DNA from: Candidatus Poribacteria bacterium
Lineage (GTDB): Bacteria; Poribacteria; WGA-4E; WGA-3G
Assembly: GCA_964291315.2 (NCBI GenBank)
Contig: OZ219753.1
Coordinates: 1,824,001 to 1,888,000, forward strand
Length of the DNA stretch: 64,000 nt
Direction of reading: 5' to 3'
Both the position numbers and the translations under genes were made by a program. The notes under the pieces are model-generated. The model was given only the letters and a program-made list of their open reading frames with translations, did no database searches and had not been told where the DNA came from. Below, in pieces: positions 16,531 to 51,899 of the stretch (the stretch's first letter is position 1; each line of letters starts with the position of its first letter).

Positions 16531-16652
16531 ATTTTCTGTCCCTAAACCACTGCCGGCTATCGATTGTCGGAAACTATCAGCCGGTGACAGCTGCATACCA
16601 CGCCCTGCCACAAACCAATCTGGAACCCGATCCCTGACTGCTAACAGCCGCC

Positions 16653-17996
16653 TTACGTTTTCTGTGGTTTTTTACGAGCCGCTGGGAATAGAATGTTATT
16701 CAGAATGAGCCGGTAGCCGGGCGAATGTTTGTGCAAATCGAGGTTCGTCGGGATTTTACCCTCACCCACGAAGTGACGATAGTCCTCTGGATCATGACCA
16801 CCGAGAAACGTAAAAGTCCCTTTGCCTAATTTACCGTGGATGTATTTCGCGTAGTTCATGCCCTCTACCTCTCCCAAAATCGTGACTGAACCACGAATCT
16901 TGTCCATATTGAACGATGTCGTCTGCCCGAGGTACCCCGGCACAATACTGACATGGTTTTGCGTCAGCATCGTCGGGATGGGATCATGTTTTGCGGAGAA
17001 CTCGAAAAGCTTGAAATCCTCAACACCGCTCTGCGCATCTCTATCAGGCTCCGGGTTGTCTATGTCCGAGAATTCATAGCGGTACGGATTCGTATAAAGC
17101 TTGAAATTCTCGAACGCCAAGGTGCGCTGAAAATCGAGGCGCGCCCCCGCATCAGCCTCGACCGGGGTCCCATCCAACGCAGGGGCGATAATGTCAATAA
17201 CGCCGCCGTGTGTCGCCAAGGCAATGTCCAACGTCTCCGGCGCTGAACACATTGCAAAAATGAACCCGCCGTTGGCGATATAATCCGAAATCATCTGCGC
17301 AGTCTGACCTTTATGCCGCGCAACACGTCGAAAACCCGCCTCAGCGGCAGCTTGTTCAAACATCAGCATCCGTTGCTGATACCAAACCTGCTTTGAAAAT
17401 GAAGCATGGAATTTACCGTGCTGCCCCGTGAAGTCCTCGTGGTGCAGATGGAGCCAGTCGTAATCGTCTATTTCTAAGATGCCGCTTTGCACCTCTTTAT
17501 CCCAAATTTCGTCGTACGGAATCTCCGCGTAATCCAACGCAATCTTGACCGCATCATCCCAAGGATCTCGATAAGGCGACGCCTCTGAAGGGGCATACAC
17601 CGCAATCTTCGGCGCCTTTTCCAATAGAATCTCGTCCATATTGCTGCCTTGAATAACAGATTCTTTGATAGCACCATAGGCAGCAGCATCCATCGCCTCA
17701 AAACTGACACCCATGAGCACTGCACGCCTTCGGACATCCGGCGAATCGGGGACCACGAACGCACCGCCACGGTAGTTTAGCCACCAATAACACCGGTACT
17801 CGCGCGGAACTTCTAATGCCCAATAGGTCAATCCGTAAGCCTTCAGGTGATTAGTCTGCCCGCCCGTATCCATAGGTATCAAGAGCCACTGGGCAGCAGC
17901 CGCATTTACGCCTATAAGGAACAGCATGAGCAGACACAACAGAGTGCTAAACCCCCTGCCTACAATTTGAATCAGCGAAGTGTGAAATAAATTCAT
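16653..17996 (-). CDS. Conserved secreted protein with glutamine-amidotransferase-like fold (family often labelled asparagine synthetase B in FCB-group genomes)
   Basis: Signal peptide; QTNHLKAYG, WLNYRGG, DWLHLHHEDFTGQ.GKF, GGHDPED, SPGYRLILNNILFPAA; lacks true AsnB motifs. Confidence 0.65.
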   Translation of the reverse strand: MNLFHTSLIQIVGRGFSTLLCLLMLFLIGVNAAAAQWLLIPMDTGGQTNHLKAYGLTYWALEVPREYRCYWWLNYRGGAFVVPDSPDVRRRAVLMGVSFEAMDAAAYGAIKESVIQGSNMDEILLEKAPKIAVYAPSEASPYRDPWDDAVKIALDYAEIPYDEIWDKEVQSGILEIDDYDWLHLHHEDFTGQHGKFHASFSKQVWYQQRMLMFEQAAAEAGFRRVARHKGQTAQMISDYIANGGFIFAMCSAPETLDIALATHGGVIDIIAPALDGTPVEADAGARLDFQRTLAFENFKLYTNPYRYEFSDIDNPEPDRDAQSGVEDFKLFEFSAKHDPIPTMLTQNHVSIVPGYLGQTTSFNMDKIRGSVTILGEVEGMNYAKYIHGKLGKGTFTFLGGHDPEDYRHFVGEGKIPTNLDLHKHSPGYRLILNNILFPAARKKPQKT

Positions 17997-23296: not shown

Positions 23297-24562
23297 ATGA
23301 AACTTCGAGACACGCTCTACACCGGAGTCCGACACCTCTCTGAAAATCGATTGCGGGCAGGACTGTCTGTCCTCGGTATTTCCATCGGCATAGCGAGTGT
23401 GTTATGCATGATGGCGATAGGCGATGGCGCAAAACTCTTCATCAAAAAAGACATCGAGAAACTCGGCGGTGCCAACCAAGTCAACTTTTGGACCCGCACC
23501 GCTATTTGGAAACGCGGGCGCCTCATGAGACGCACCATCGAGCGATACACACTTTCTGACATACAGGCCATTGAAGCAGAATGCCCCGAGGTCATCTTCG
23601 TTTTACCTAAAACTGGCAGATACCAAGCCACCGTCAAGAGTCAACACACGGACCACGCCCGCGCTTCTGTAGAAGGCGTGACAGCCGACTACGCCACAGG
23701 AATGCATTGGAACGTGCAAGATGGGCGGTTCTTCTCCCCAGAAGATATAGAGAACGCAAAACAGGTGTGCGTCCTCGGAGCAGAAACCGCACGAGACCTC
23801 TTCGGCAATACAGCACCGTTAGGACGAGAAATCAAAATGAAATACAATTGGCGAACGCCCTTCGTGCGCTACCGCGTCATCGGCGTCATGGCACGCAAAG
23901 GGAGAAGTCTCCAGAGCTACTGGTCTCTAGATGACATCGTTTGTATCCCGTTGACAACACACCAGCAAAGGCTCTCCGGCACCCGGTATGTTGAGGGGAT
24001 GCACGTCTTTTTCAAAAAATCGGCAGAGGTTGACCTTGTCATAGATTCCGTTAAGGATGTCCTCCGGAAAAGACACCAGGGTGCTGATGACTTTATCGAG
24101 TATTGGGTACCGCAAAGAACTGTCAGACGCTTGGATCACATTCAAAAGGTGATACAGATTTCTCTGGGGAGCATCGCCGGTTTTTCGCTATTCGTCAGCG
24201 GGATCGGTATCATGAATATCTGTCTTGTCTCTGTCGGTGAAAGGACCCAGGAGATAGGTATCCGGAAATCTGTTGGGGCGAAAGAGCTCGACATCTTTTG
24301 CCAATTCTTGACAGAGTCCCTCTCTTTATGTCTGTGTGGCGGGGTGCTGGGCATCGCGGTCGGGTGGGTGGCTGCACACGGCATGGCGCGCCTCGCCGTC
24401 CATGTTCTGCCGATTGTGGGGACGTGGCCTGTAGTTATGTCGCCGCCGTGGATGCTAACATCGGTTGTCTTCTCTATCTTTATGGGTACCGTTTTCGGTG
24501 TCTATCCGGCTATCCGGGCAGCCCGGCTCACACCTATCGCCGCACTCCGAACTGAGAAATAA
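23297..24562 (+). CDS. MacB/FtsX-type ABC transporter permease
   Basis: LSVLGISIGIASV, GIGIMNICLVSVGERTQEIGIRKSVGA, YPAIRAARL.PI.ALR.E. Confidence 0.92.
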   Translation: MKLRDTLYTGVRHLSENRLRAGLSVLGISIGIASVLCMMAIGDGAKLFIKKDIEKLGGANQVNFWTRTAIWKRGRLMRRTIERYTLSDIQAIEAECPEVIFVLPKTGRYQATVKSQHTDHARASVEGVTADYATGMHWNVQDGRFFSPEDIENAKQVCVLGAETARDLFGNTAPLGREIKMKYNWRTPFVRYRVIGVMARKGRSLQSYWSLDDIVCIPLTTHQQRLSGTRYVEGMHVFFKKSAEVDLVIDSVKDVLRKRHQGADDFIEYWVPQRTVRRLDHIQKVIQISLGSIAGFSLFVSGIGIMNICLVSVGERTQEIGIRKSVGAKELDIFCQFLTESLSLCLCGGVLGIAVGWVAAHGMARLAVHVLPIVGTWPVVMSPPWMLTSVVFSIFMGTVFGVYPAIRAARLTPIAALRTEK

Positions 24563-35987: not shown

Positions 35988-36083
35988 TATACATTCGATC
36001 CTATAGAAACGCCTCTTATGCAGGTAGACCCAGCACCTATCCTATATACCCTGACGGCAGAGCACCCATAACTATTAAATAAT

Positions 36084-36112
36084 TTGATTTTTAATTAGAA
36101 ATATTGTATAAT
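36084..36112 (+). promoter_or_regulatory. Promoter of the tRNA pair
   Basis: TTGATT-17 nt-TATAAT. Confidence 0.55.
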
Positions 36113-36133
36113 TTTTTATACCGAAATTAAAGC

Positions 36134-36206
36134 GGGCCCATAGCTCAGTGGTCAGAGCCGTCGGCTCATAACCGACTGGTCCTAGGTTCGAGTCCTAGTG
36201 GGCCCA
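36134..36206 (+). tRNA. tRNA with CAT anticodon, most likely tRNA-Ile2
   Basis: GGGCCCA/TGGGCCC acceptor stem, GTCGG-CTCATAA-CCGAC anticodon arm; paired first position and no GGG/CCC anticodon stem, so not initiator; lies downstream of rpoD like ileX. Confidence 0.88.
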
Positions 36207-36217
36207 TATCCCTACAT

Positions 36218-36290
36218 GGGGCGTTAGCTCAGGGGTACGAGCGCTACCTTCACACGGTAGAAGTCACTGGTTCAAATCCAGTACGCCCCA
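36218..36290 (+). tRNA. tRNA-Val(CAC)
   Basis: GGGGCGT/ACGCCCC acceptor stem, CTACC-TTCACAC-GGTAG anticodon arm, GGTTCAAATCC; D-loop ends in C rather than the usual A; CCA not encoded. Confidence 0.92.
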
Positions 36291-36597
36291 TTGTTGTCAG
36301 GTCAAGCACGTTCGGTTCTAGCGTAGGACAGATATACAAATTCCGACTGCTGCCATAGAACCCAACAAAGCTCAAAAACTAAATCGCCCTATCTCAAACC
36401 AAGGGCCGGTACATGGAAAGTAGGGATGCCCCACGCTTTGTCCAAACTAGCATCAAAGCGATCGATTGAGACAGCCACAACGAAGTCCCAACCTTACAGA
36501 TATTCTTCCCTGCTAATCACCCATGTAGACAGAATTTCCGAATCCCGACTGCTAACCGATGACGGCTGACAACCAGCCGCATTCTATTCACAACTAA

Positions 36598-37035
36598 ATG
36601 ACTAAATACGTAGTAGCAACAGCAGATGAAATCGAACCCGGCAAACGCAAAATCGTCGAAATCGGAGGACGGTCGATCGGGATTTTTAACATTGACGGCG
36701 AATATTTCGCCATCCGTAACAGCTGCCCGCATCAAGGCGGACCCTTATGCCGCGGCATGGTCACCGGCTTTTTAGAATCCTCTGCACCGGGCTCCTATAA
36801 CTATACCCGCAAAGGCGAGATCCTCCGGTGCCCATGGCACAGTTGGGAATTCGACATCAAAACCGGGCAATCCTGGTGGAACCCCGCACAGCGACGCGTT
36901 AAAAAATACAACGTCCACGTCGAGAGTGGCGAGGACATCGAGGCATCCAGCCCTCAACCGCAAAAGGGCCCTTATGTAGCCGATACCTTCCCCGTCACCA
37001 TCGAACAAAAATACATCGTCATTGATATTGCCTAA
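36598..37035 (+). CDS. Rieske [2Fe-2S] ferredoxin
   Basis: CPHQG...CPWH.WEFD. Confidence 0.92.
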   Translation: MTKYVVATADEIEPGKRKIVEIGGRSIGIFNIDGEYFAIRNSCPHQGGPLCRGMVTGFLESSAPGSYNYTRKGEILRCPWHSWEFDIKTGQSWWNPAQRRVKKYNVHVESGEDIEASSPQPQKGPYVADTFPVTIEQKYIVIDIA

Positions 37036-37143
37036 CGGAAAATCTTAGATGCGTAAATCTAGCCTTGTGGAATTTGCTCTTTCAGAAAAAAAGATAATAC
37101 CGAATGTAAATACACAAAGGTACATTAGATACGGAGATTTTTA

Positions 37144-38280
37144 ATGCCCAATCCCCACACACTCCTCTGTACAATTGGAACAAGTCTGTTTTATCCCAAC
37201 CTGTCCAATCTTCTTAAGGAAGAGCAAACCGATCCCCGCCGCGCTGCTCTCGCCCGGGCATATTCCCAAAAAGATTGGCAGGCAGTAGCATTACAACTGC
37301 ATGAAGTAGATCCAACCAACCGTCTTTGTGGTGCAGAGATTAACTCTGTGACGGATCTCATCGAACATAACCATATTGAGATAGGCTATCTTCATCTGTT
37401 CCACTCTGATACAGACACCGGAAAATCGATCGCCGAAATTTTGAAAACCTACTTCACACAAGATCATTGGCGGGTGAAAGTTCATTGTGTAGAAGGCTTG
37501 CAAGATGATGACCCTAAGCTGTTTCGCACGCAGGGTTTGCGCAACCTTGTCAAACTCTTCGGCGAACAGGTACGTGAGTCAAGACAAAACTCTATTCCCT
37601 GTGCTATTAATGCAACCGGCGGATATAAAGCTCAGATTGCAATTGCAGTACTTATGGGGCAATCTCTTGACATCCCAGTCTATTACAAGCATGAACGTTT
37701 TAATGCGATTATCCCGTTTCCACCTATGCCTGTAGCTCTCGATGTTTCACTGTGGCAGCGTGCCAGCGGTATGTTTATGCTCCTGAGTCAGACTGACGCT
37801 TGTGAACCCGAAAAAAATTTCAGTGAGGACTGGGATGTGCGTTTTGAACCTTTAGTTGAGCGGGTGGTGATTGATGATGAGCCACATCTGTCACTCTCAG
37901 CCACTGGACAGATTTTTCATGAAACCTCCCACTCTCATTTTCAGGAATTGAAGACGAACAATCTTCCGCGGGCTGCATATCAGCATGAGAAAGAGCAACC
38001 GAGGCTCGGAGAACACGGCTACAACCAAGCCCTTAATCCCATCTTACATTTTTTGCAAACCCTCACCGACGCAAAAGACTACGTCCGATACTGTCATTCA
38101 ACGCGTTGGTATCCGAACCTGCCGGAAGCCACCCGATTTCGGTTATCACGTGGAGCTGTCGAAGGAGTATACTCAAACGGGACGTGGTGTGTGAAATTTA
38201 GGGTCATCACAACCGCAGAAGATGAAAGCCAATTAGCAGTCGTTGTGGCAGATCTCAATGACTGGTTGCACACACAATAA
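37144..38280 (+). CDS. CRISPR-associated CARF protein (APE2256/TIGR02619-type) with C-terminal putative effector domain
   Basis: LLCTIGTSL, GAEINS, HSDT..G, INATGGYKAQ, YYKHE.F; directly upstream of cas10. Confidence 0.85.
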   Translation: MPNPHTLLCTIGTSLFYPNLSNLLKEEQTDPRRAALARAYSQKDWQAVALQLHEVDPTNRLCGAEINSVTDLIEHNHIEIGYLHLFHSDTDTGKSIAEILKTYFTQDHWRVKVHCVEGLQDDDPKLFRTQGLRNLVKLFGEQVRESRQNSIPCAINATGGYKAQIAIAVLMGQSLDIPVYYKHERFNAIIPFPPMPVALDVSLWQRASGMFMLLSQTDACEPEKNFSEDWDVRFEPLVERVVIDDEPHLSLSATGQIFHETSHSHFQELKTNNLPRAAYQHEKEQPRLGEHGYNQALNPILHFLQTLTDAKDYVRYCHSTRWYPNLPEATRFRLSRGAVEGVYSNGTWCVKFRVITTAEDESQLAVVVADLNDWLHTQ

Positions 38281-38313: not shown

Positions 38314-39921
38314 ATGGCTGATGAATCTTTTGTAATTATAATCGATACCCCCTCAGTAAAAAAATATGTGTTCGGTAGCGATTCTTTGAGTGAAGTACGG
38401 GGCGGCAGCGCGCGACTAGATCGCTTAAACCGGCACGAAATGGAAAGCTGTTTAACGAAGCACCCTGACGTAGCAAACGTAGAACGGGTTTATGCCAATG
38501 GGGGTTCAGCACAGTTTTTGGTCCAGGCAGACAATGCTGCCAAGGTTAAAGCTGCCTGTGAAAGCATGCTGTACCAGATCCGCGCGCAAACAGGCGGGGA
38601 AGTGCGACTTGTCTACGGTATTGCCCCGCTTAAAGATGCGGGGGCCTACCCGGAGACTGTGCGCACCGCACATTTTCAACTTCGATGCCAACGCGAGTTT
38701 GCAACATGCCATCGGAGCGCTGCCTTAGCGCCTATTATATCGGAATGTACCTCTTCTTCGCACCTGCCCGCAGTTCACATAGATGATGACCAGATACTGT
38801 CCCAGGCAAGCTATGAAAAAGTGCATGAGCGACAGGGAACGCCGCATCACGGGCTCTGGCGTGGATGGATGCACCATTTAAATCACAAAGGAAATTGGCC
38901 AGAAAGCAAGCATTGGAATAAACTACGATGTGAGAACCTAACGGATATCGGCGATCGATCCTCATGGCGCAACTACATCGGGATAGTCTATGCCGATGGA
39001 AACGCCATGGGACAAATTGTCCAAGCCATGACATGCCCGGAGACATTTCGCCAATTTAGCAAAATTGTCGATAACAGTATTCAAGACGCATGTTTCACTG
39101 CACTTAGCGAAATTTCCGAGCGGGAAGTTAATAAAATTCGAAAAGATTATAAACAACAGAAGGGTTTTGACCCCCTCGCTGCTGATATCCTACTCCTTGG
39201 CGGCGACGACTTGCTAGTGGCACTGCCAGCCGACCGGGCACTCGATTTTTCCCTGAGAGTCACCGAAAAATTTGAAGCCTTGACAAAAAATAAAATTGAT
39301 GCCCTACAAAATGCAGAAACGCAGCAGTTTTTCCACGAGAAGCTCGGCGACCGAGGCTTCACAATTTCCTGCGGGGTTGCCATTGCAAAAAGCAGCTATC
39401 CGTTTTATCTCGCCCTAGACCTGGCAGAGCAGCTCTTGAAAAATGCCAAACGCCAAAATAGCCGTACTTCGCAAACCGAAACACAAAACAAGGCACGCGT
39501 TGACTTTCATGTCGTAGCAGGAGCAAATAGCCACACCCTTGGACAAGTGCGTGAGACGGACTATCAAGTATCGACTGATTCCACTGCGCAGCGAACGCTT
39601 CGCCCCTTGTCTTGTCCTGAATTGAAGACGCTCCGGACCGGTGTCGAGCGCCTGCAAGAGGCGAGATTTCCACATAGCAAGCTCTATGAGCTTCAAGAGG
39701 CAGCTCTGTTACCGAGCAAGATTCAATCTGACTGGCGCATTAAAGATATATTCGCTCGATGCCAGCATGGAAAAGGCCAATCGCAGCGACGCGCCTTATG
39801 GGAAGCCACAAGACATTTGTGCCCACAAGAATACAACTTTAACTTCCCGTGGTTCGAAAAAGACGGGCAACGCCTGCTGTGTGTAGCAGACCTCGTAGAA
39901 GCATACCGCCTATTTGCTTAG
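38314..39921 (+). CDS. cas10: Cas10, compact, HD-less, cyclase motif intact
   Basis: DTPSVKKYVF.S..L.EVRGGS, YADGNAMG, LGGDDL, AEQLLKNAK; no N-terminal HD domain. Confidence 0.92.
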   Translation: MADESFVIIIDTPSVKKYVFGSDSLSEVRGGSARLDRLNRHEMESCLTKHPDVANVERVYANGGSAQFLVQADNAAKVKAACESMLYQIRAQTGGEVRLVYGIAPLKDAGAYPETVRTAHFQLRCQREFATCHRSAALAPIISECTSSSHLPAVHIDDDQILSQASYEKVHERQGTPHHGLWRGWMHHLNHKGNWPESKHWNKLRCENLTDIGDRSSWRNYIGIVYADGNAMGQIVQAMTCPETFRQFSKIVDNSIQDACFTALSEISEREVNKIRKDYKQQKGFDPLAADILLLGGDDLLVALPADRALDFSLRVTEKFEALTKNKIDALQNAETQQFFHEKLGDRGFTISCGVAIAKSSYPFYLALDLAEQLLKNAKRQNSRTSQTETQNKARVDFHVVAGANSHTLGQVRETDYQVSTDSTAQRTLRPLSCPELKTLRTGVERLQEARFPHSKLYELQEAALLPSKIQSDWRIKDIFARCQHGKGQSQRRALWEATRHLCPQEYNFNFPWFEKDGQRLLCVADLVEAYRLFA

Positions 39922-39939: not shown

Positions 39940-40683
39940 ATGAATCCTCAACGCTTAGACCTAGACTACCATATTATTTGGCAGGGACGTTGGCACGTCG
40001 GTAGCGGATATCAATCCGCAGCAGCAGATAGGTTACTCCGGCGCTTGGAAGGTGTTGACGGTGGCCCGTTTGTTCCCGGCTCTCAAATCAAGGGCGTTCT
40101 ACGTTACCAGTGCGAAAGATTAGCACTCGCGTTCGGGCTCGAAGCAGTCAACCCCCACGCCGGTATTAAAGAAGACAATCAGAATCTAATAAGACATTTT
40201 AAGCCGTTGAAGGAAACAACCTTGGTAGTAGATCGACTATTTGGCACCCGTTATCAAGGCGAATGTCTCTTTGTTACGAACGCAGTGCCTATGTTATTAC
40301 CCGAGGAGAAAACAGTTCCCTCCGTACAACCGCGTACAGCCTTGGACCGCCTTACAGGAACAGTAATGGAACACAATCTGTTCACAACCGAATTTTCGGA
40401 TCAGAAAACCTCGCTTCAAGGAACTATCCGCGCCCGTCATCCCGCCGGCGTTCTGACACCTTATGAAGAAGGGGTTCCTTATGAATATGCGCTCCTCCTA
40501 GTATCACTCCTTTCCATGGATACCTTGGGCGGAGACAAAAGCACCGGCTTAGGACGTTGCAGCCTTGAAATCGTAGAGGACTCCTTGCGTTGGAACTGCC
40601 AAGATATTTCATTGGATGCCGGTCTGCAAAGTTTCGAGGATTTAGCAGACGAATGGGCTGAGTGGTTAGAGGCAACACGTTAA
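39940..40683 (+). CDS. Cas7-group RAMP (Csm3-like)
   Basis: WHVGSG, VPGSQIKGVLR, RTALDRLTG, G-rich loop LGGDKSTGLG. Confidence 0.88.
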   Translation: MNPQRLDLDYHIIWQGRWHVGSGYQSAAADRLLRRLEGVDGGPFVPGSQIKGVLRYQCERLALAFGLEAVNPHAGIKEDNQNLIRHFKPLKETTLVVDRLFGTRYQGECLFVTNAVPMLLPEEKTVPSVQPRTALDRLTGTVMEHNLFTTEFSDQKTSLQGTIRARHPAGVLTPYEEGVPYEYALLLVSLLSMDTLGGDKSTGLGRCSLEIVEDSLRWNCQDISLDAGLQSFEDLADEWAEWLEATR

Positions 40684-40708
40684 TAACTGTAAATAAGGAT
40701 CGAACAGC

Positions 40709-41965
40709 ATGAAAACAATACCCATAACAGCAAAATTACTTTCACCCCTAGCACTTAGACGCGACCGCCAATCTGATCGCTCGCGGAGTGACCGATCTGT
40801 GACCGGCACAGCAGTCCGGGGCGCCTTGGCCGCTCTCTATTTGCAACACCACGGGCAAACAGATCATACCTTTAACCATCTGTTTCTAAATGAGGCTGCA
40901 TGCCGCTTTGGCCCACTGGATCCCGGACCTAAGCACTTCCCACTAACCACCGCCGCCTGCAAGCGCGAAGGACTAAAACACGCCCTTGTAGACCAATTGT
41001 GGTACCGTATCGCTCAACACTATACCGGAGGCCTTGTGGAAGAAAGCGCAGAATCCACATGGCGGCAATGCCAATACAAGCAGTGCGGAGCAGATTTGAA
41101 AGCACACGACGGCTTTTGGCAGAAACACAGCGATAATAGCTTGCACGAAATGAACGAAGACCGACAACACGTCGCCACCCACGTCGGCATCGATCGACAT
41201 ACTGCTACCACCGCCGAATCTATGTTCTACACCCTTGAAGCTATGCTGGCTTCTGGTAAAAAGAAAGACCTATACGGATGGTGTTCTGTAGACGAAGATG
41301 CCCTCAACGCCCTGAAAAAACTCTTGGAAACCGAGAAATACCGCATATCAGTCGGACACCATCGCACGCGCGGCTATGGAGATATACGTATACAATTGCA
41401 CAAAGCTGTTGAAGAGATGGACCAACAGACTTGTGTGGAAAATTGGGAACGTTGGAGTCAGGAACTAGCGGCGTTTCTGAATTCACCCCCACTCTCTGTT
41501 CGGGACATTAATACTGAACATTTCTATTTTTCGCTCTCCTTTCCCAACGGGGCTATATTCGTGGATAAATTTTTGCGCTACAGTCTGGATCCCGCTACCA
41601 TGCTTTCATGGCTACCCCCTATGCCTTCTGTAGATCAAGCTTTCCCTATAGAGAGCCGGCCTCCCTATAAACTCTCATCGGGAGGCACAATACAGTGGAT
41701 AACTGCGGTAACTAAACACGAACGACTCCGCGGCTGGAACGCAGCCCACGGCCTGCCCCGTCAAGATGAATGGAACGTCGCACGAGGCTCTATCTACGTC
41801 TACTCTTTTCAGGGCACTACGGCACAACGGGAAGCACTTATCCAACATCTCAGCAATTTGTGCAAAGCGGGGGTTGGATTACGACGCAATGAGGGATTCG
41901 GCACAGTCGTCATTTCCGATGAGTTCCATTACCAGTTTCGCAAACAACAAGAGGTCCAATCGTGA
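40709..41965 (+). CDS. csx10: Csx10 (Cas5-group RAMP)
   Basis: LLSPL, GTAVRGALA, HVGIDR.T, RTRGYG, RGWN...GLPR, GLRRNEGFG. Confidence 0.82.
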   Translation: MKTIPITAKLLSPLALRRDRQSDRSRSDRSVTGTAVRGALAALYLQHHGQTDHTFNHLFLNEAACRFGPLDPGPKHFPLTTAACKREGLKHALVDQLWYRIAQHYTGGLVEESAESTWRQCQYKQCGADLKAHDGFWQKHSDNSLHEMNEDRQHVATHVGIDRHTATTAESMFYTLEAMLASGKKKDLYGWCSVDEDALNALKKLLETEKYRISVGHHRTRGYGDIRIQLHKAVEEMDQQTCVENWERWSQELAAFLNSPPLSVRDINTEHFYFSLSFPNGAIFVDKFLRYSLDPATMLSWLPPMPSVDQAFPIESRPPYKLSSGGTIQWITAVTKHERLRGWNAAHGLPRQDEWNVARGSIYVYSFQGTTAQREALIQHLSNLCKAGVGLRRNEGFGTVVISDEFHYQFRKQQEVQS

Positions 41966-42402
41966 TTGTTTTGAATAACGAGTTAATCCAAAAAACCGAT
42001 TGCTATATTGACGAGCATCACGAAACTTTTTCCAAATTAGGTGAATCTTTCTTTGCTACATTCGGCTATGACCCACGAAACAATCGCATTAGCTCACAAG
42101 TTCGTAACCTTCAACAAATTGTCTGCTCTGCTACGCGTTTTGCGGACATTGAGGATTTTGTAAAAAACCAGATAGGAAAAGAAAGAAAGAACGCTCCAGA
42201 CAAAACAGAGTGGAGAGCATTAGGAGAGCAGGTTCTGAAGCAATTGAGGCAGCTGCGCGCCAAAAGTAAGGAATTGGACAGCGATCCCAATAATCAAATC
42301 GCTTTGCGCTTGCGTCTCGCTCGCGGCTGGGTGCGCGCTGTCGTCAGCTCCTACCTCTATCAGACAGCATTGGAACAAATGGAGCATAGAGGTGTACTAT
42401 GA
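41962..42402 (+). CDS. Cas11/Csm2-like small subunit (first copy)
   Basis: Predicted all-helical; SQVRNLQQI...FVKNQIGK...W...YLY pattern; position after csx10. Confidence 0.65.
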   Translation: MIVLNNELIQKTDCYIDEHHETFSKLGESFFATFGYDPRNNRISSQVRNLQQIVCSATRFADIEDFVKNQIGKERKNAPDKTEWRALGEQVLKQLRQLRAKSKELDSDPNNQIALRLRLARGWVRAVVSSYLYQTALEQMEHRGVL

Positions 42403-42920
42403 ATTATGTTGACCTACTGTCCGATACAATCTATTGTGAACAGGCTGTTAAACAATTAAATAAAATACTAGGGAATGCTAGCATATTTCCTGTGGCATAT
42501 TCACAGATTTACGGGCTGCGCCAAATCGCCAGACAACAGCCCCACAAGGTCCTGCCATTTGCCCAACATCAAAACGAGCGCGCCGAAAAGTTAAACAAGG
42601 CAGCCGAGGTCGACTTTTGGTCTCTGGTGGCAGAACTTTGTAAACCCTACAACCCTTCAGATGCTAACTGGTCTGTTTGTAGAGAAGGCACTAATTATCT
42701 GCCAGAAGGCATACGAGAACAAGATATTCCTCCAAAACGGAAAGGCATGCAGCAAAAAGAGCAAAGTGAGCGCAATCAACTCAGGAAAAAACAAAAAGAA
42801 TGGCTCAAGCAATGGGAAAAAGAACATATTCCAGCGTTTTTTGAACGTTTCTGTACAGAGTGTTTGTATCGGAAAACTATGATCGAAACAGCAGAGCTAA
42901 AAACAGAACACAATGGGTAA
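42399..42920 (+). CDS. Cas11/Csm2-like small subunit (second copy)
   Basis: SQIYGLRQIA...FAQHQNER...FW...FFERF...LY pattern; ATGA overlap with the previous gene. Confidence 0.55.
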   Translation: MNYVDLLSDTIYCEQAVKQLNKILGNASIFPVAYSQIYGLRQIARQQPHKVLPFAQHQNERAEKLNKAAEVDFWSLVAELCKPYNPSDANWSVCREGTNYLPEGIREQDIPPKRKGMQQKEQSERNQLRKKQKEWLKQWEKEHIPAFFERFCTECLYRKTMIETAELKTEHNG

Positions 42921-43000
42921 AACGAAGCTATAGACAGCTGAGAAATGTAAATACGTTTGCATGCAAGACAGGTAAAATCGATAAAAGGAGTAATAATAAT

Positions 43001-43828
43001 ATGCTTCAATTAAAGCAGAAGATCCGCCTTACTGCTTGCTTAGGGTTCGACACCGCCTGGCGCATCGGTTCCGGCAAAGAGGGTGAAACTATGAGCGATT
43101 TGGGAGTAGTCCTTGATCCTAATGGCAGTCCGGTTCTGCCCGGTTCTTCACTCAAGGGAAAATTACGGAGCACTTGCGAAACGTTATCACATGCCCTCCA
43201 TCTGCAAGCCTGCATGTTAAATGAAGACGCAAGCGGGGTCCGCTGTGCCAGTGATGTGAATTATTATCACCGTGTGCGTGGTAATTATCAGAAAACCTAT
43301 CAGGAAGGGGTAAAAAGCCGCCTGCAATGGATTGACGACAACACCTGCGATGTTTGCAAACTCTTCGGTTCGCCAGTACAAGCCGGACGCTTGGCGGTAA
43401 GTGATGGCGAACTACAGGATTGGGCATCCCTTGTGCAGGTACGCGACGGCATTGTCATTGATCGTGATAGTCAAACAGCCGTCGATGGTCTCAAATACGA
43501 CTATGAAGTTATTCCATCAAGCAGCCGATTCCAGCTCTGTATTGACATTGAAAACCCAACTGATTCCGACCAGGCTCTACTCGGTGCTGCTCTGTTTGAT
43601 TGGCACGCCGGCAGCAGTATCGGCGGGTTTACAAGCCGAGGCCTCGGACGCTTCCATCTCAAAGATATCAAAATATTCAATGTCGACATGACAGACGCAC
43701 AGCAAAGAATCAAATTCTTAACGAAAAAAACAACCGAGGAACGTTTCAATCTCTTAGAAAATTGGGAATCTTATTTCACTCAATACATAGATAAGACGTG
43801 TCGGGTTCTAGAGAATGAGGAGGGTTAA
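43001..43828 (+). CDS. Cas7-group RAMP (Csx7-like)
   Basis: RIGSG, LPGSSLKGKLRS, CDVCKLFGS, RDGIVIDR, IGGFTSRGLG; AAGGAG RBS before ATG 43001. Confidence 0.88.
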   Translation: MLQLKQKIRLTACLGFDTAWRIGSGKEGETMSDLGVVLDPNGSPVLPGSSLKGKLRSTCETLSHALHLQACMLNEDASGVRCASDVNYYHRVRGNYQKTYQEGVKSRLQWIDDNTCDVCKLFGSPVQAGRLAVSDGELQDWASLVQVRDGIVIDRDSQTAVDGLKYDYEVIPSSSRFQLCIDIENPTDSDQALLGAALFDWHAGSSIGGFTSRGLGRFHLKDIKIFNVDMTDAQQRIKFLTKKTTEERFNLLENWESYFTQYIDKTCRVLENEEG

Positions 43829-43830
43829 CT

Positions 43831-44808
43831 GTGTTACGAAAATGGTTCTGTCAAGCGGATATAAAAATTATCATTGAACCGGTCGACCCTATACTGATTA
43901 AGAGTGGTTATGCTACTATAGACGGGACGGACATGGTGCCTGTATCAACGTTCAAAGACGGCGATCGCGTCTACTACTTTCCCGGGAGCTCACTCAAAGG
44001 CGTACTGCGCAGCCATCTAGAACGTATCGCTCGCACCCTGCATTCAGGCAGCGTCTGCATCCCTTACTATGACCCTAAGAAAAATATGACAATACCCGCC
44101 GCTGCAGAAGAGACCTCCCACGGCTGTGGATATCGCTCACGCAGCCCTCGGAGCAAGAAGACCTCTGCTACTGCGTACGCCGATTCGTGTGCTACATGCC
44201 GCCTGTTCGGCTCCTTGAAATTTGGCGGACGTTTCAGTATAAGTGATGCCTACCCTTTGTTAGAGCATAAGCCTTCTATTGAATCACGCAACGGAGTAAC
44301 AATAGACCGTTTTACAGGCGGAACTGTACCGGGAGCTCTGTTCGACCTGCAAGTACTTGTAGGCGGACAATTCGCCGCGAACCTCCGTTTGATTAACTTT
44401 GAATCCTGGCAACTTGCAGCGCTTAACCTGTTGTTATTAGATATGGCAGATGAAATGATTACCATCGGCTCCGGACGCAGTAGAGGACTTGGCCGCGTAC
44501 GAATCACCGTTCCTTCGTATTGTCTTTCCTACGTTCGAAATGTTAATAAACTTGTTGGGCTATACCACCTTGTCACCCCCCAGGAGCAAAATGCTTACAG
44601 CTTATACAATTGGACACCTGAAGACGATATCGCCCTACAAAGCCCGCATATACGCGGTCTGCGGCATCAGTACGATCTCAGTGACAATTGGGGTACACTG
44701 CTACAACCGCTCTTACCCGCCTTTGAAAAATTTCTGCAGTGGCACGGGGGCCCTCGCGGGCAAGCACCCCACACCGAGGCTGCCAATAAGAAGGAAATCA
44801 ACCCATGA
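43831..44808 (+). CDS. Cas7-group RAMP
   Basis: PILIKSG, FPGSSLKGVLRS, CATCRLFGS, RNGVTIDRFTGG, IGSGRSRGLG. Confidence 0.88.
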   Translation: MLRKWFCQADIKIIIEPVDPILIKSGYATIDGTDMVPVSTFKDGDRVYYFPGSSLKGVLRSHLERIARTLHSGSVCIPYYDPKKNMTIPAAAEETSHGCGYRSRSPRSKKTSATAYADSCATCRLFGSLKFGGRFSISDAYPLLEHKPSIESRNGVTIDRFTGGTVPGALFDLQVLVGGQFAANLRLINFESWQLAALNLLLLDMADEMITIGSGRSRGLGRVRITVPSYCLSYVRNVNKLVGLYHLVTPQEQNAYSLYNWTPEDDIALQSPHIRGLRHQYDLSDNWGTLLQPLLPAFEKFLQWHGGPRGQAPHTEAANKKEINP

Positions 44809-45407
44809 CAGATTTTTTGAAAACCGCAGATCTAACACAGAATGTGTTTCTGAAGCTTATTGAAAACCTTCCACTCGATGCCCAAGTATCTACAGGTTAC
44901 ATCTGGCTAGAAGCCGCTGATGGATGGACACTGGACCGCTGGAATTGGGAAATCGGTATTGAAACGGAGATACGTTGGTACCGAGCACGACATGAGCCGG
45001 TAGAAAAATCCGCTAAAGACTGTCTGGCGAAATCCACCGCCGGTCGACTCTTTGCCATGGAGGGCGAGCTACGCTGGCGCACCATCCCCGCACTCGGAGA
45101 AGCATGCTGGCGCACAGTCTTCCTCGGAAATGTTGATTGGGCGGGGCCAACCTTGGAAAATCATTCCCAAGCTTTGAATAATTTGCGTTCACATCAGAAA
45201 AGCTTTTACTTATGGGGACAACAGACACAAGAGACACCCGATGAATGGATTGAACTGCGGATCCCACACCGTTTTCAGTATCCTATTGCAGGCAACCCGC
45301 ATAGAGTCAAAATCCTCACCGAACAATGGGACGATGCCACCGGCGAACCGCACTTCGTCCGACTCTGTACTCTTAAACCCGCAGAGGAGACAACATCATG
45401 CCAATAG
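44805..45407 (+). CDS. Csx19-like subunit
   Basis: GRLF...GELRW, YLWG, ELRIP...YP, FVRL; position between Cas7 genes as in type III-D. Confidence 0.7.
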   Translation: MTDFLKTADLTQNVFLKLIENLPLDAQVSTGYIWLEAADGWTLDRWNWEIGIETEIRWYRARHEPVEKSAKDCLAKSTAGRLFAMEGELRWRTIPALGEACWRTVFLGNVDWAGPTLENHSQALNNLRSHQKSFYLWGQQTQETPDEWIELRIPHRFQYPIAGNPHRVKILTEQWDDATGEPHFVRLCTLKPAEETTSCQ

Positions 45408-46477
45408 GAGAAAACTTCTGGAACCCATACCGCTGGGTCACCCTCAGTAATCGCCCCAGCACACACGATACGCCACACTATCATCATACCTTTAGCGCTC
45501 TTTCGGGGCAACTGTGGTGTGAGCTTGAGGCACTAACGCCTTTACTGATTGGGGACCGACGAGTACCCATCCAATTTGTCCGCCACGCTCACAATGGGCA
45601 ACCCTATATTCCAGGTACCTCACTTAAGGGGGCCATACGCTCTTTGGTCGAAGTCCTAGGAAATGGAACCACGCCCCCTGCTAATCATCAGCCGGGCGCT
45701 ACTAATCGTCAGCTGGACACTGCAAGCCGAACTTTCGGCTACTCGGACCGCAGTGACATCTTTACAGGATTGATCCGATTCAGCGATGCGGAAATCTCCG
45801 AGCCAATTACGCCTATGGACATGAGGCAATGGCAGGAGTGGACTGTAGTTGTCGGGGCACCAAAACGCACACACACCGCTTTTTATCCACAAGGCCGAAA
45901 GCACAAGTTTTACCACCATCACCCTGGCGCGATACAACTCGTTCCTCCACATCCGGGTGTTACTCAAACCACTATAGTCAGACCTGCCCCACCCAGGACA
46001 TCTTTCCATTTCACAGTGGACTTTACAAATCTACGCGAAGAAGAACTGAATGTCTTACTCTACAGCCTTGCCCTTGAAGAACAAGTTACTGTCCGGCTAA
46101 GTCCAGAAGCACTCGGTCGAAAGGAAGACAATGAAGGCGAGGAATTCTGCGGGCCCCTCCGCCATAAAATAGGCGGCGCCAAACCACACGGGGCCGGCTC
46201 CGTTCACATTCGGATAACCAAAATGCAATTGTGTCGGGACGCAGCAGCCCGTTACCGAGGCAATACGGCTACCGACATCTTGGAAAAAACAAGCCTCACC
46301 AACGAGATATACGAACGCACTGCAAGCTTTCAAAACCGCACAGACACAACAATGAGAGAACTACGGGCTATGTTGATTTATTCTACCGATGATCCCAGAA
46401 CACCTATTCATTATCCGACGTATAGATGGTTTAATACACAACAAGGCGCACAAACACAATTAAAACCGACCCTCTAA
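45398..46477 (+). CDS. Terminal Cas7-group RAMP (TIGR03986-like), short form
   Basis: FWNPYRWV, LEALTPLLIG, IPGTSLKGAIRS, RKHKFYHH, F.NL..EEL, KIGGAKPHGAGSV. Confidence 0.82.
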   Translation: MPIGENFWNPYRWVTLSNRPSTHDTPHYHHTFSALSGQLWCELEALTPLLIGDRRVPIQFVRHAHNGQPYIPGTSLKGAIRSLVEVLGNGTTPPANHQPGATNRQLDTASRTFGYSDRSDIFTGLIRFSDAEISEPITPMDMRQWQEWTVVVGAPKRTHTAFYPQGRKHKFYHHHPGAIQLVPPHPGVTQTTIVRPAPPRTSFHFTVDFTNLREEELNVLLYSLALEEQVTVRLSPEALGRKEDNEGEEFCGPLRHKIGGAKPHGAGSVHIRITKMQLCRDAAARYRGNTATDILEKTSLTNEIYERTASFQNRTDTTMRELRAMLIYSTDDPRTPIHYPTYRWFNTQQGAQTQLKPTL

Positions 46478-46494
46478 CTAAATACGAACTTACC

Positions 46495-47454
46495 ATGATA
46501 TGCCAAAACTTTCGATTCGCACGCTACCGCTTCACATATACCGTCCAAGAACCCTTGAAAATGCCACAATACAAAGGCAATATCTTCCGCAGCCGATTCG
46601 GATACCTCCTGCGCGAAATCACATGCATCGGCGGTAAAGAACACTGTGTGAACCGTTGTCAGTTTCCAGAACGGTGTGTATATTCCAAATGCTTTGAAAC
46701 GCCAGTCCCAGAGGACAGCCCTATCCTCCGGGGGCAACCCTATGCACCACATCCGTTTATACTCGAACCACCGCTCACACCGAAATTAGACTATAGCCCC
46801 GGCGACATCTTCTCCTGCACGCTGACCCTCGTCGGTAACGCAATTAACCTGTTGGCTTGGCTGGTTTTCGCCTTCCGAGAGATAGGCAAACGACGGATCG
46901 GCATCCGCGGTAAACGCGGGCAATGCAAACTTAACAAAGTCGAAGCACTCCCCGCAAAAGATAACCAAAGCCACCGAACAATTTACACAGCAGAAACCGA
47001 GCTACTCACAGACAACGGGCTAGTGCTCCGACACAACGACGTGATACACCAGATACCTAATTCTGTTAATCAGATTCACCTAGAATTCCTTACGCCCGCG
47101 AGTATCAAAGTCAACGGGAAATGGACCAAAGAACTGACGTTCGAACATCTCATCCGCAATTTGCTCCGACGCATCCGGTTCTTGAGCTACTTTCACTGCG
47201 ACGAGGATTTGAATGTAGACGCTCGCGCGCTCATCGAGAAAGCCTGTCCCGTCATACACGAGTCTAATTTCCGTTGGATCCGAGCTGACCGATACTCCTA
47301 CCGCGCAGGGAGTTCTATACCCATGGGCGGGTTTACCGGTAAAATCCGATTTTCAGGCGAATTAGAACCCTTTCTGCCTTTTATCTATTTGGGGAAGTAT
47401 TTACACATCGGGCATCACACAGCTTTTGGACACGGGCAGTACGTCATTCGGTAA
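46495..47454 (+). CDS. cas6: Cas6 pre-crRNA endoribonuclease (DUF2276-type)
   Basis: YKG..FR..FG, Cys cluster, PHPFILEPP, FLTP, GGFTG, G-rich loop GKYLHIGHHTAFGHG. Confidence 0.88.
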   Translation: MICQNFRFARYRFTYTVQEPLKMPQYKGNIFRSRFGYLLREITCIGGKEHCVNRCQFPERCVYSKCFETPVPEDSPILRGQPYAPHPFILEPPLTPKLDYSPGDIFSCTLTLVGNAINLLAWLVFAFREIGKRRIGIRGKRGQCKLNKVEALPAKDNQSHRTIYTAETELLTDNGLVLRHNDVIHQIPNSVNQIHLEFLTPASIKVNGKWTKELTFEHLIRNLLRRIRFLSYFHCDEDLNVDARALIEKACPVIHESNFRWIRADRYSYRAGSSIPMGGFTGKIRFSGELEPFLPFIYLGKYLHIGHHTAFGHGQYVIR

Positions 47455-47688: not shown

Positions 47689-50653
47689 ATGTCAAGAAAA
47701 AAACGCACCGCTAAGCCAAAAGAGGTCCGAGACTACCGACACGACACCGTTACCCGAAAAAATAATCCGCCCGCAGGCATCGCCGCACAAGGGAAGCTCC
47801 AAGAGCCCCCGAAACGGCAATACGCATACAACCCACACCTGCCACCCAACCTCCGAGCCGACCCAGACGCAGACGCAGATAAACTTCCCGAACTCCTCCA
47901 CACCGCACAACAGCGACCACTCTCCGCAGATGAGGCGAAGACGCTCGCCGAGGCACTCCGACACCACGCTCCCTGGCTTGAATGGGCAGGCAAGCAGGAG
48001 AACGCAACAACCTTCAGCGTCGACCCCGTGGCACTCCACATCCATGAGCGCGTCAGCAGCAAAGCGATCCTGAAAACCGCAAAGCGCCAAAACGTCCAAC
48101 GTGAACTCTTCGCCGATCCGCAGCAGGATTATAGCACAGCCGTTGACTTTTACCAGCACGATGTAGATTGGGCGAATCGCCTCATTCTTGGGGATAGTCT
48201 CACAGTGATGAGTTCCCTTGCACAACGTGAAAATCTCGGTGGCAAGGTGCAGATGATCTACATAGACCCGCCGTATGGTATCAAGTTTGCCTCTAACTTT
48301 CAACCGAGTACTTTTCAGCGGGACGTAAGAGAGCGTCCGCAGGACTTGACGCGTGAGCGTGAGCAGATCAAGGCGTATCGGGATACGTGGCGTTTGGGTA
48401 TCCACTCATATCTTGCGTATCTGCGGGATCGGTTGATTGTTGCGAAGGAATTGTTGACAGATAGCGGCAGTATTTTTGTGCAGATGGGGGATGAGAATGT
48501 CCATCGCGTCCGCTGTGTCATGGATGAGGTGTTCGGGAGTGAGAATTTTGTTTCTCAGATCACGTATAAAGTGACTAGCGGTTTTGAACGAAAGTTAGGG
48601 CCGCGCAGAATTCAAGCCCACATTATGTGGTATGCTAAAAAAAAGGAATCGTGTAAATTTCGAAGAATATTTAAGCCTAAAGATGTTGATGGTTTGAATC
48701 TTGATTTATATAGGTACGTTGAACAAGATGGTAATGTTAGAACATTGACGCGCGATGAACGCACAAATCCTGAACAAATTCCTGATGATGCCAGAGTCTT
48801 TAGATCCCTGCCACTCCACACTATGGGAACAGCGAAAAGAGAACCACGGGTGTTTGAAGGAGAGGTATATACGCCTCCGCCTAATACACAGTGGCGACAC
48901 ACAACAGCTGCGTTCGACGTTATGGTAAAATGCAATCGTATTATAAAAGAGGGGAATCGGATCAGGTCCAAATTTTACTTGGGAGATCTCGGTGCCGAAG
49001 AATATAATAATGTTTGGCTTGATACTGGGCCAGAACTCGCTAAATTCTATGTGGCTCAGACTTCATCCAAGGTCATTCAACGCTGTCTCTTAATGACCAC
49101 AGACCCAGGCGATTTGGTCCTTGATCCGACTTGTGGAAGTGGCACAACCGCCTATGTTGCCGAGCAGTGGGGCAGACGTTGGATTACGATTGATACGAGT
49201 CGAGTTGCTGTTACTTTGGCACGTCAACGCCTTTTAACAGGAAGCTTTAATTACTATAGACTCAAGGATGGACCTAAAAATATCACAGGCGGTTTTATAA
49301 ACAAAATCGTTCCACGAGTCACTCTCAAAGATATTGGGCAAAACACTGCCCTGGATCCGATATTTGCCAAGCATGAGCCGATATTGAAAGAGAAGTTGGA
49401 TGCTCTGAACAACAACTTATCACAGATTACCCCCCCCGCTTCGCATAAAACTCCTCGCAAAACTCACCGATAAGCAGAAAAAACACGGCAAAACTGCCAT
49501 CACAGACGCAGATAAACGCCGCTGGCAGCTACCAGATACACATTGGAACGACTGGCAAGTACCCTTCGATACAGACCCCGACTGGCCAAAACCACTACAA
49601 CACGCTCTCGTAGACTACCGCAAAGCGTGGAAAGCAAAGATGAACGATGTCAACGCATGCATCGCCGCAGCCGCCGAAACCGAAGAACTCGTCGATCAGC
49701 CACACATCAACAGAAAGCGAGTGCGTGTCACCGGACCCTTCACCGTAGAGGCAGTGCAACCCGCAGAAGAGTCTCTTCACCTTGATTCACCCATCGCAGC
49801 ACAACCCGAAGAAGTCGATACTACTTTTGATGCCGAGACCGACACGCACGAACCGATCAATGCCGAGGCATACCTCGAACAGATGATACATCACCTCCGA
49901 CACGACGGCGTCCGATTCCCTAATAACAACACATTGACATTCGACACCCTCGACCCCATCGAAGCCGATATCCTCCACGCAGAAGGCACTTGGAAACACT
50001 GCGATACTGAATCCTCCGTCGCCGTCGCATTTGGACCACAGCACGGCCCCATCACCGCAATGCAAGTCGAGGCGTGTCTACCCATCGCCTCCCGCCGCGG
50101 TTATGATGAACTCGTCTTCGCAGGGTTCAGTTTTGACGGCGCGGCACAAGCAGTTATCCAAGACGATCCGAACCCCAGGGTCCGTATCCATATGGCACAC
50201 ATCAACCCGGATGTCGCAATGGGCGGACTCCTCAAGCAGACACCCTCAACCCAGCTCTTTACCGTCTTCGGAATGCCCCGCACAACCCTTGAGGAAGCCG
50301 GCGAAGAGGAATATATTATCAAAATGGAAGGCGTGGACATCTACGACCCGTCAGACAACACCGTGCGCTCTGCGGGTGCGGATAAGGTGGCGGCGTGGTT
50401 TGTGGATACCGACTACGATGGGCGCACGTTCTGCATCACGCAAGCCTTCTTCCCGGACAAGACAGCATGGCAGAAGATCGCCCGTGCCTTGAAAGGCGTT
50501 ATTGATGAAGAGCAGTTTGAGCGGTTCAGTGGCACAACATCGTTTCCGTTCCGTTTTGGACCGCATAAACAGGTCGCAGTCAAAGTCATCGACCCGCGCG
50601 GAAATGAGGTGATGAGCCTGCATAGTTTGGCAGACCCAAGGTATTCCGTATAG
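47689..50653 (+). pseudogene. Type III Mod-like beta-class adenine DNA methyltransferase, frameshifted in a C8 tract (49430-49437)
   Basis: NRLILGDSL, IYIDPPYG, VLDPTCGSGTT in the first ORF; deleting one C joins it to 49640-50653 (ending VAVKVIDPRGNE) giving 987 aa. Confidence 0.85.
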
Positions 50654-51256: not shown

Positions 51257-51530
51257 CTTTCTACAACCTTTCCCGCTCGAAGGGAATCGAAACTACATTT
51301 AAGTTCTAAATTGTGTGAGTTGCGTGATATCTGGGTCATCGACTTTCCATAACCTTTCCCGCTCGAAGGGAATCGAAACAAGTAAAGTCAAATATTATGA
51401 ACGGCTCTCTGGATGTCTTTCCATAACCTTTCCCACTCGAAGGGAATCGAAACAATAAAAATAAAAAATATCCGCCAAGGCATGAAACACAAAATTTCCA
51501 CAGCCTTTCCCGCTCGAAGGGAATTAAAAT
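51257..51530 (+). CRISPR. CRISPR mini-array: four 37-bp repeats, three spacers (49, 37, 40 nt)
   Basis: Consensus CTTTCCATAACCTTTCCCGCTCGAAGGGAATCGAAAC at 51257, 51343, 51417 and degenerate 51494; TTCCC/GGGAA hairpin; 3' ATCGAAAC handle and degenerate last repeat give + orientation. Confidence 0.93.
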
Positions 51531-51899
51531 TAACAGGCAGCAATCAGTAAGCGGCAAAAGAGATGTGAGCCCCATACCCGCTTCTGATAGCTAACCTACT
51601 GACACCTTCCGTTTAATCAGAGCAGTCAATACGCACCCCTGAACCCCTCTTGACTCTCTTACCTTTGGCAGCCTGTCTGACATCTTCCACACTTCCGATA
51701 CATCCGAAAATTTAAATTAAAACAGATGACAAATAAATTCGTCTTAAGTAAAATAAATGAGGAATATTGAGTTCTTGTGTAGGTAGAACCTCCAAATTGT
51801 GCAAATAAAACGCAATTTGTCTCAGGCTCTTATTTCCTGACTACCGACCCTTAACCCATAACAACCGAAAACCGATGTTGAAAACAGGGAGATTTTACC

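Follow-up and report, generated by a model that had tools for sequence, protein, structure and literature searches.

A CARF7 protein with a 'DUF2103-like' C-terminal domain beside a type III-D1 CRISPR-Cas system in a Poribacteria bacterium

The gene at 37144..38280 on the forward strand of a 64,000-nucleotide stretch of a Candidatus Poribacteria genome (the whole stretch is called the window below) encodes a further member of CARF7-wHTH-'DUF2103-like' (wHTH, winged helix-turn-helix), a protein family that is already in catalogues but uncharacterised, and its product is best explained as an ancillary signalling protein of the type III-D1 CRISPR-Cas system that the gene adjoins. We give about an even chance to a reading in which this protein, hereafter the candidate sensor, senses cyclic oligoadenylate (cOA), is self-limiting because the ring-nuclease residues S14 and K162 are conserved, and carries an effector domain of new fold at its C-terminus. 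A previous reading made from the sequence alone (the sequence-only reading) had described a protein in three parts, an APE2256/CARF7 head, a wHTH-like middle and a tail that is not HEPN, and this anatomy, with a tail that is not RelE either, is borne out by the profile searches and structure models described here.

The open reading frame (ORF) has an ATG start, 378 codons and a GGAG about 7 nt 5' of the ATG, and both of the peptide strings quoted in the sequence-only reading are found in its translation, at residues 286 and 343. The gene and its parts are:

37144..38280, + strand: CARF7 + wHTH-like + 'DUF2103-like' protein of 378 aa (ORF, translation, PADLOC PDLC01930, AlphaFold2 (AF2) model)
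37144..37743, + strand: CARF domain of Cas_APE2256/CARF7 type, residues 1-200 (PF09651, family profile A1)
37744..37962, + strand: middle helical/hairpin domain, wHTH-like, residues 201-273 (AF2, PADLOC CARF_RelE alignment, Foldseek)
37963..38277, + strand: linker, residues 274-293, and C-terminal alpha-beta4-alpha domain, residues 294-378 (AF2 domain model)

Pfam finds a single family in the whole protein, Cas_APE2256 (PF09651, residues 61-194, E 9.2e-36), with 123.2 bits against a gathering cutoff of 24.8, and NCBIfam TIGR02619 also matches it (E 2.6e-20). The PADLOC profile PDLC01930, named 'CARF7--CARF_DUF2103', matches over almost its whole length (E 7.7e-116, residues 5-375 against positions 3-352 of 353), and another PADLOC profile of the same name matches residues 6-367. 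As the PDLC01930 match takes in the C-terminal domain, the candidate sensor is a member of this PADLOC family, which is therefore already in the defence-gene catalogues, and nothing sets the window protein apart from it. The sequence-only reading had called the protein uncharacterised, which holds in that full-text literature searches, in which the 2020 CARF census was not covered, returned no experimental study of a member, but the family itself has not gone unnoticed.

The CARF head and the middle domain

The full-length AF2 model, built from 38 relatives, has a predicted local distance difference test score (pLDDT) of 87.6 and falls into the three parts listed above, the middle one consisting of a helix (201-237), an extended stretch (238-251) and a second helix (253-273). 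When this model was compared with the PDB using Foldseek the best match was Cami1 of Allochromatium vinosum (PDB 8phb, 8phj), with E 1.7e-13 for 8phb and an alignment of 398 columns, followed by Sis0811 (7pq2) and SSO1393 (3qyf) with E ~1e-10 and a TM-score on the target (TMt) of 0.59-0.65, the alignment with Sis0811 extending over 290 columns (TMt 0.61). Sis0811 and SSO1393 are described in PMC9638899 as CARF + HTH proteins; they have this arrangement and the catalytic Ser and Lys in common with the candidate sensor, but end after the HTH (at ~270-275 aa), whereas the candidate sensor has ~105 further conserved residues. It follows from these matches to CARF + HTH ring nucleases that, as modelled, the head and the middle domain are equal to a Crn1-type ring nuclease, the last ~105 residues being extra.

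The same relationship is seen in sequence profiles, as the family profile A1 matches both Cami1 (8phb, E 5.6e-20) and Sis0811 (7pq2, E 1.2e-8) and pairs S12 and K169 of Sis0811 with S14 and K162 of the candidate sensor. Neither residue varies among the 38 relatives, nor do the motifs in which they lie, G12-T13-S14 (G-x-S) and T158-G159-G160-Y161-K162 (T-G-G-x-K), and Sis0811 mutants at the corresponding positions are in the PDB, namely S12A (7pq6) and S12G/K169G (7pqa). The fold that defines the Crn1 type, CARF + HTH with a catalytic Ser and Lys, is thus present by Foldseek and by the S14/K162 alignment, although the score for the NCBIfam ring-nuclease equivalog NF040951 is 23 bits, its cutoff being 600. 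These residue matches fit the earlier suggestion of self-limitation, and the candidate sensor is possibly able to degrade its own signal.

The likeness to Cami1, which is also encoded beside type III cas genes and is of nearly the same length (381 aa against 378), stops short of the C-terminus. The CARF7/APE2256 head is in common, hhalign aligns the family with Cami1 at a probability of 99% over residues 58-209, that is the CARF part only, and the PADLOC CARF_RelE profiles align from the N-terminus and end at residues ~220-285. Beyond this point Cami1 has a RelE domain and the candidate sensor an unrelated alpha-beta4-alpha domain; the scaffold being shared and the alignments ending before the tail, the tail replaces RelE on a common scaffold.

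A CARF + wHTH-like arrangement could also belong to a Csa3-like transcription regulator that responds to cOA, in which the wHTH-like middle binds DNA and the tail modulates. Csa3 chains are among the Foldseek matches (E ~1.6e-3) and the gene is the first of the cas operon in the window, but we consider such a regulator quite improbable, as Csa3 matches only weakly (TMq 0.23-0.26), far behind Cami1 and Sis0811. The same wHTH-like domain is also present in Cami1 and Sis0811, described by depositors and in papers as an RNase effector and a ring nuclease, respectively. Furthermore, the position of the gene is not constant: with the loci of relatives numbered from L001, it precedes cas10 in the window, L001, L003 and L025 but comes after the operon in L010, L014 and L021.

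The C-terminal domain

The C-terminal domain, of ~95 aa, is predicted by AF2 to have the element order alpha-beta-beta-beta-beta-alpha, with helices at 294-310 and 361-377 enclosing strands at 314-323, 331-335, 338-344 and 349-356. It is a genuine domain rather than a chance extension, as a separate AF2 model of residues 270-378 (109 aa) has a pLDDT of 96.4 and the domain is kept in 79 further loci and in 59 representative relatives. In an alignment of 80 tail sequences, with identities of 32-69% to that of the window, it is conserved to the same degree as the CARF head. P275 and C317 are invariant, positions conserved at 90% or more include K283, P286, S344, G346, K351, T356 and N372, and the polar residues are prominent (C317 in 80/80, S344 and N372 in 79/80, K351 and K283 in 76/80, T356 in 75/80 and R333 in 70/80). 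Judged from this alignment, the conservation of polar residues exceeds the needs of a spacer, and the alternation of residues along the strands, rather than coordinates, predicts that C317, R333, S344 and K351 share a face of the sheet.

No known fold could be assigned to this domain. Foldseek comparison of the tail model (residues 270-378), which had been proposed as a check in the sequence-only reading, found no PDB chain at E<=1e-3; the best matches were profilins (E 0.044, TM 0.20), at chance level and discarded as evidence, and the ribosome hibernation factors HPF/RaiA (E 0.14-0.74, TM 0.25-0.32) were likewise at chance level and are a loose lead only. In BFVD there was no model at E<=1e-3, the best being an unnamed viral protein of 92 aa (E 8.6e-3, TM 0.41/0.47) that is uninformative. 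The tail profile A3, made from the 80 sequences, found nothing significant among PDB sequences (best E 0.17), a search for look-alikes of residues 270-378 and 201-378 in the ESM Atlas gave no usable match, and in Pfam the tail alone matched only DUF3067 at E<=10 (E 0.17-0.19), which was treated as noise.

The description of the tail as 'DUF2103-like' in the sequence-only reading agrees with the PADLOC profile name and with usage in PMC12065111, but not with Pfam: the DUF2103 model (PF09876) does not match the window tail at E<=10, matches one of the 80 family tails at a noise-level E of 0.08 and none of 50 representatives at E<=1e-3. The origin of the label rests on profile names and on two citing papers; a software preprint mentions 'CARF7_DUF2103'. 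PMC12065111 (2025) places a 'DUF2103-like' domain in the effector slot of Menshen NsnC, notes the same Cas_APE2256 fusion in CRISPR loci and reports no structural homologue, which agrees with the Foldseek results for the tail in the PDB and BFVD. The NsnC domain and the tail are likened by description, and no NsnC-like long protein is present among the 59 tail relatives.

The tail is not HEPN either. The sole Rx4-6H string, R276..H281, belongs to the variable linker and is not kept in the family (at position 276 there is P in 47/80 and R in 24/80, and position 281 is without a majority residue), and the matches of PADLOC profiles of HEPN type are confined to CARF. No PD-(D/E)xK family was matched, the best PADLOC profile, CARF4--CARF_PDDEXK (E 7.7e-4), covering residues 85-190 and hence only CARF, so the absence of both motifs noted by the sequence-only reading is upheld. 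Csx1/Csm6 (CARF-HEPN) are likewise cOA-sensing ancillary type III proteins and Csx1/Csm6 genes often adjoin the family, but they are of a different CARF clade, and the candidate sensor lacks their HEPN domain and conserved Rx4-6H.

The sequence-only reading had named a standard RelE as one finding that would undo it, and an ordinary Cami1, with a tail that is a very divergent RelE/BECR RNase cutting mRNA on the ribosome, would be in keeping with the common CARF7 + middle-domain scaffold and with a tail that is small, mixed alpha/beta and has conserved Arg and Lys on its strands. It is nonetheless very improbable indeed, as the 80-sequence tail profile, compared by hhalign with residues 201-381 of Cami1, reaches a probability of 0.13%, every PADLOC CARF_RelE profile has ended by residue 285, and there is no RelE or Cami1 chain among the PDB matches listed for the tail model, the best of which has an E of only 0.044. 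The alpha-beta4-alpha order of the tail is also unlike that of RelE. Moreover, a cyanobacterial locus, L066, holds a member of the family (10001-11236) together with a full-length CARF7-RelE protein (16132-17289; PDLC01934, E 6.5e-128), from which it follows that the two are not interchangeable. The tail is therefore none of RelE, HEPN and Pfam DUF2103, and as a conserved domain that matches no known fold it probably carries a new kind of immune output.

The type III-D1 locus and the distribution of relatives

Downstream of the candidate sensor gene lie the remaining parts of the CRISPR-Cas locus:

38314..39921, + strand: Cas10, short, 535 aa (Pfam Cas10-Cmr2_palm2; PADLOC Cas10, E 1.7e-65)
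39940..47454, + strand: rest of the type III-D1 operon (Pfam, NCBIfam and PADLOC matches)
51257..51546, + strand: short CRISPR array, four repeats of ~37 nt, the last degenerate (repeat search family D1, spacing 74-86 nt)

The candidate sensor gene is the first of the cas operon; its stop is separated from the start of cas10, on the same strand, by 33 nt that contain AGGAGG, and a scan for sigma-70 promoters and terminators found no terminator-like site in this gap but, with fewer sites around the gene than in shuffled sequence, is uninformative. Cas10 was predicted by the sequence-only reading to be without an HD domain and to have an intact GGDD, and this was confirmed: LLLGGDDLL is in the translation and the protein begins at the palm region, therefore leaving no room for an HD domain. 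After cas10 the order is Cas7-like RAMP, Csx10 (Cas5), Cas11/Csm2-like, a 173-aa ORF, two Csx7, Csx19, a TIGR03986-type RAMP and Cas6, with Csx10, Csx19 and the TIGR03986 RAMP scoring slightly under their NCBIfam cutoffs and both Csx7 above theirs. With a GGDD Cas10, Csx10, Csx19 and several separate Cas7 genes the locus is of subtype III-D1, for which the definition used, several separate Cas7 genes with Csx19, is taken from PMC13294483.

The 173-aa ORF (42399-42920) has no Pfam, NCBIfam or PADLOC match and is 47-65% identical to its counterparts in the five loci where the whole operon recurs. Between cas6 and the array, ORFs 47689-49473 and 49640-50653 match consecutive parts (positions 46-612 and 649-980 of 983) of one PADLOC type III methyltransferase profile, and may represent either a single gene that has been split or a form with two genes. 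The array is 3.8 kb from cas6; Tandem Repeats Finder reported nothing at 51257-51546, and no cas1 or cas2 was seen in the window. Elsewhere in the window a 1026-aa type IIG restriction enzyme-methyltransferase is encoded at 2134-5211 (PADLOC E 1.5e-231). Just upstream of the CRISPR-Cas locus, between the sigma-70 and Rieske genes, are tRNA-Met CAT and tRNA-Val CAC (36134-36291), in a stretch that has 89% identity with Poribacteria locus L001 over 236 nt.

A phmmer search with residues 270-378 against 1.84 billion representative proteins found 59 tail relatives at E<=1e-3. Fifty of these were scanned, the nine shortest (39-97 aa) being left out, and 29 of the 50 carry Cas_APE2256, the remainder being short and without an informative domain; among the 21 without a CARF match there was no other defence-type partner, only one cytochrome c match and two coiled-coil extensions. 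A profile search for free-standing tail domains in proteins of 57-203 aa gave 33 matches, none with a Pfam domain, and as most are on contigs of 1-2.5 kb they are probably gene fragments. The tail domain is therefore rare and nearly always fused. At full length 1644 proteins match at E<=1e-3, and among the 120 matches listed all cover 91-100% of the query; many of the 1644 probably match via CARF alone.

Among the genomes of 185,579 species, each represented once, there were 314 candidate stretches, and 297 of these proved to be genuine. Relatives at 60-76% identity, the nearest, come from metagenome-assembled genomes with the labels Poribacteria, Latescibacterota, Binatia, Entotheonella, Dehalococcoidia, Gammaproteobacteria and Paracoccaceae, whereas those at 42-50% are from cyanobacteria, Planctomycetota, Competibacteraceae and other groups. 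The 60-76% identical orthologues (L001-L027) thus span at least seven phyla or classes by label, several of them known from sponges, and adjoin III-A, III-B or III-D systems, which suggests that the gene has recently spread as a module by horizontal transfer. Three subtypes are therefore served by orthologues of 60% identity or more, as would fit a module coupled to them by a diffusible signal and not tied to a single fixed complex.

Poribacteria locus L001 is syntenic with the window (DnaG 70%, sigma-70 77%, Rieske 81%, cas operon 64-77%). By tblastn with the window Cas proteins a Cas10 relative is found in 13 of 80 loci and the complete III-D1 operon, at 47-77% protein identity, in L001, L003, L014, L021 and L025. 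Fourteen further loci were scanned with PADLOC, the ORFs taken being those of 140 aa or more within ~6 kb, and 12 of these loci hold type III genes, of III-B type in L008, L015, L022, L026, L029, L065 and L073 and III-A-like in L016, L018, L020, L034 and L068; L024 had Cas6 only and L032 no type III genes. Csx21 adjoins the family in three III-D-type loci (L002:19349-19969, L005:9321-9923 and L007:19427-20107).

Effector domain or off-switch

In the reading to which we give an even chance, a crRNA-guided complex would bind foreign RNA and the HD-less Cas10 would make cOA at its GGDD palm site. By analogy with other CARF7 proteins the ligand is most likely cyclic tetra-adenylate (cA4), which would bind the CARF head, presumably as a dimer, and switch on the C-terminal alpha-beta4-alpha domain that stands in place of the RelE RNase of Cami1. 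The activated tail may then damage some component of the host or the phage, with RNA or translation the most likely target, until slow cleavage of cA4 at the CARF site turns the protein off. The more particular proposal, that the tail is a cOA-switched toxin of new fold with a Cys/Ser/Lys/Arg/Asn site on the exposed sheet and acts on RNA or the translation machinery, is tentative, and we hold it at somewhat under an even chance.

No CARF protein other than the candidate sensor, which lies beside a cyclase-type Cas10, was found in the window. The PADLOC scan covered the 10 other locus genes and 38 other window ORFs of at least 100 aa and found no second CARF or SAVED protein; a match to 'CARF_m8--CARF_LolE_TM' at 23297-24559 covers the permease part of the profile only and was rejected as a second CARF. 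The claim of the sequence-only reading that this is the only effector beside Cas10 thus stands for the window as far as CARF proteins are concerned. Its further claim, that the protein should carry the signalling output, is weakened by the loci of its relatives, where there is a Csx1 gene directly upstream in L001, the nearest relative, and another CARF protein in 10 of the 12 III-D-type loci scanned, these being the loci chosen for a Cas10 tblastn match.

A rival explanation is that the protein is a ring nuclease only, a Crn1/Sis0811-type off-switch that degrades cA4, with a tail that is a non-toxic tether or a module for oligomerisation or regulation. The invariant S14 and K162, in line with the catalytic S12 and K169 of Sis0811, and the Foldseek matches to Sis0811 and SSO1393 would be expected of such an enzyme, and several observations made here weigh on its side and against an effector. 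Csx1 (CARF-HEPN) is encoded directly upstream in L001, L002, L003, L034 and L052, and HEPN effectors are found in 9 of 26 loci scanned; with Csx1 upstream in the closest relatives (L001, L002, L003 and L052) and another CARF in 10 of 12 loci, the candidate sensor could serve to switch off Csx1. The context scans took ORFs of at least 120-140 aa within ~6-10 kb, and effectors encoded elsewhere are possible. No catalytic fold or motif was recognised in the tail by Pfam, Foldseek against the PDB and BFVD, profile searches or hhalign. Further, the window copy has R321, Y323 and N325 where the family has Y (75/80), N (71/80) and D (66/80), although position 321 is variable among close relatives too and the departures at these three positions need not mean that function is lost.

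The comparison of 35988-37143 with L001:3830-10000 bears on the same question. L001 holds four more ORFs there, including the Csx1 directly upstream of the orthologue, and no trace of a Csx1 was detected in this part of the window, where the only remnant, of 54 aa (36413-36556), is of another ORF. That the window lacks the Csx1 gene present in L001 weighs on the side of an off-switch. There is also a precedent in SyCsm6 (Sll7062), a CARF7 protein of a type III-D-class operon (III-Dv) in Synechocystis, which according to PMC9676260 cleaves cOA, is a ring nuclease and has no RNase activity in vitro. The tail of SyCsm6 is described as RelE-like, unlike that of the candidate sensor, and it is not a close relative, as no Synechocystis record was among the 7 plasmid records matched.

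Despite these points we regard a ring nuclease alone as the less likely reading, though a serious rival. The scans found no CARF protein besides the candidate sensor in the window, nor besides the family member in 11 of the 24 type III loci, leaving no other for it to regulate, and in L029 its only signalling-type neighbour is itself a ring nuclease, of the Csx3-AAA kind, without any other recognised effector. The tail, moreover, is conserved like the CARF head, with polar residues that are invariant or nearly so, the same kind of domain is reported from the NsnC effector slot in PMC12065111, and the NCBIfam ring-nuclease model falls far below its cutoff. Co-occurrence with another CARF protein does not decide the matter, as a rate of about one-half is given in PMC11229360 for Cami1, a proven effector. 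The evidence for an effector and for an off-switch is thus split.

As a single genome annotation the gene is ordinary, a member of a catalogued family in its usual setting. Type III CRISPR defends by small-molecule signals, and each new effector has revealed another way of stopping a virus; those known include Csm6, Can1/2, Cami1, Cad1 and CalpL. The family described here is widespread, strongly conserved and often the sole sensor in its locus, and has an output domain to which no fold can be assigned. If its members are ring nucleases only, then many stand-alone loci would have no known effector, which is itself a gap; if the tail is a toxin, it would add an effector class to type III immunity, possibly with a new RNA- or ribosome-directed activity.

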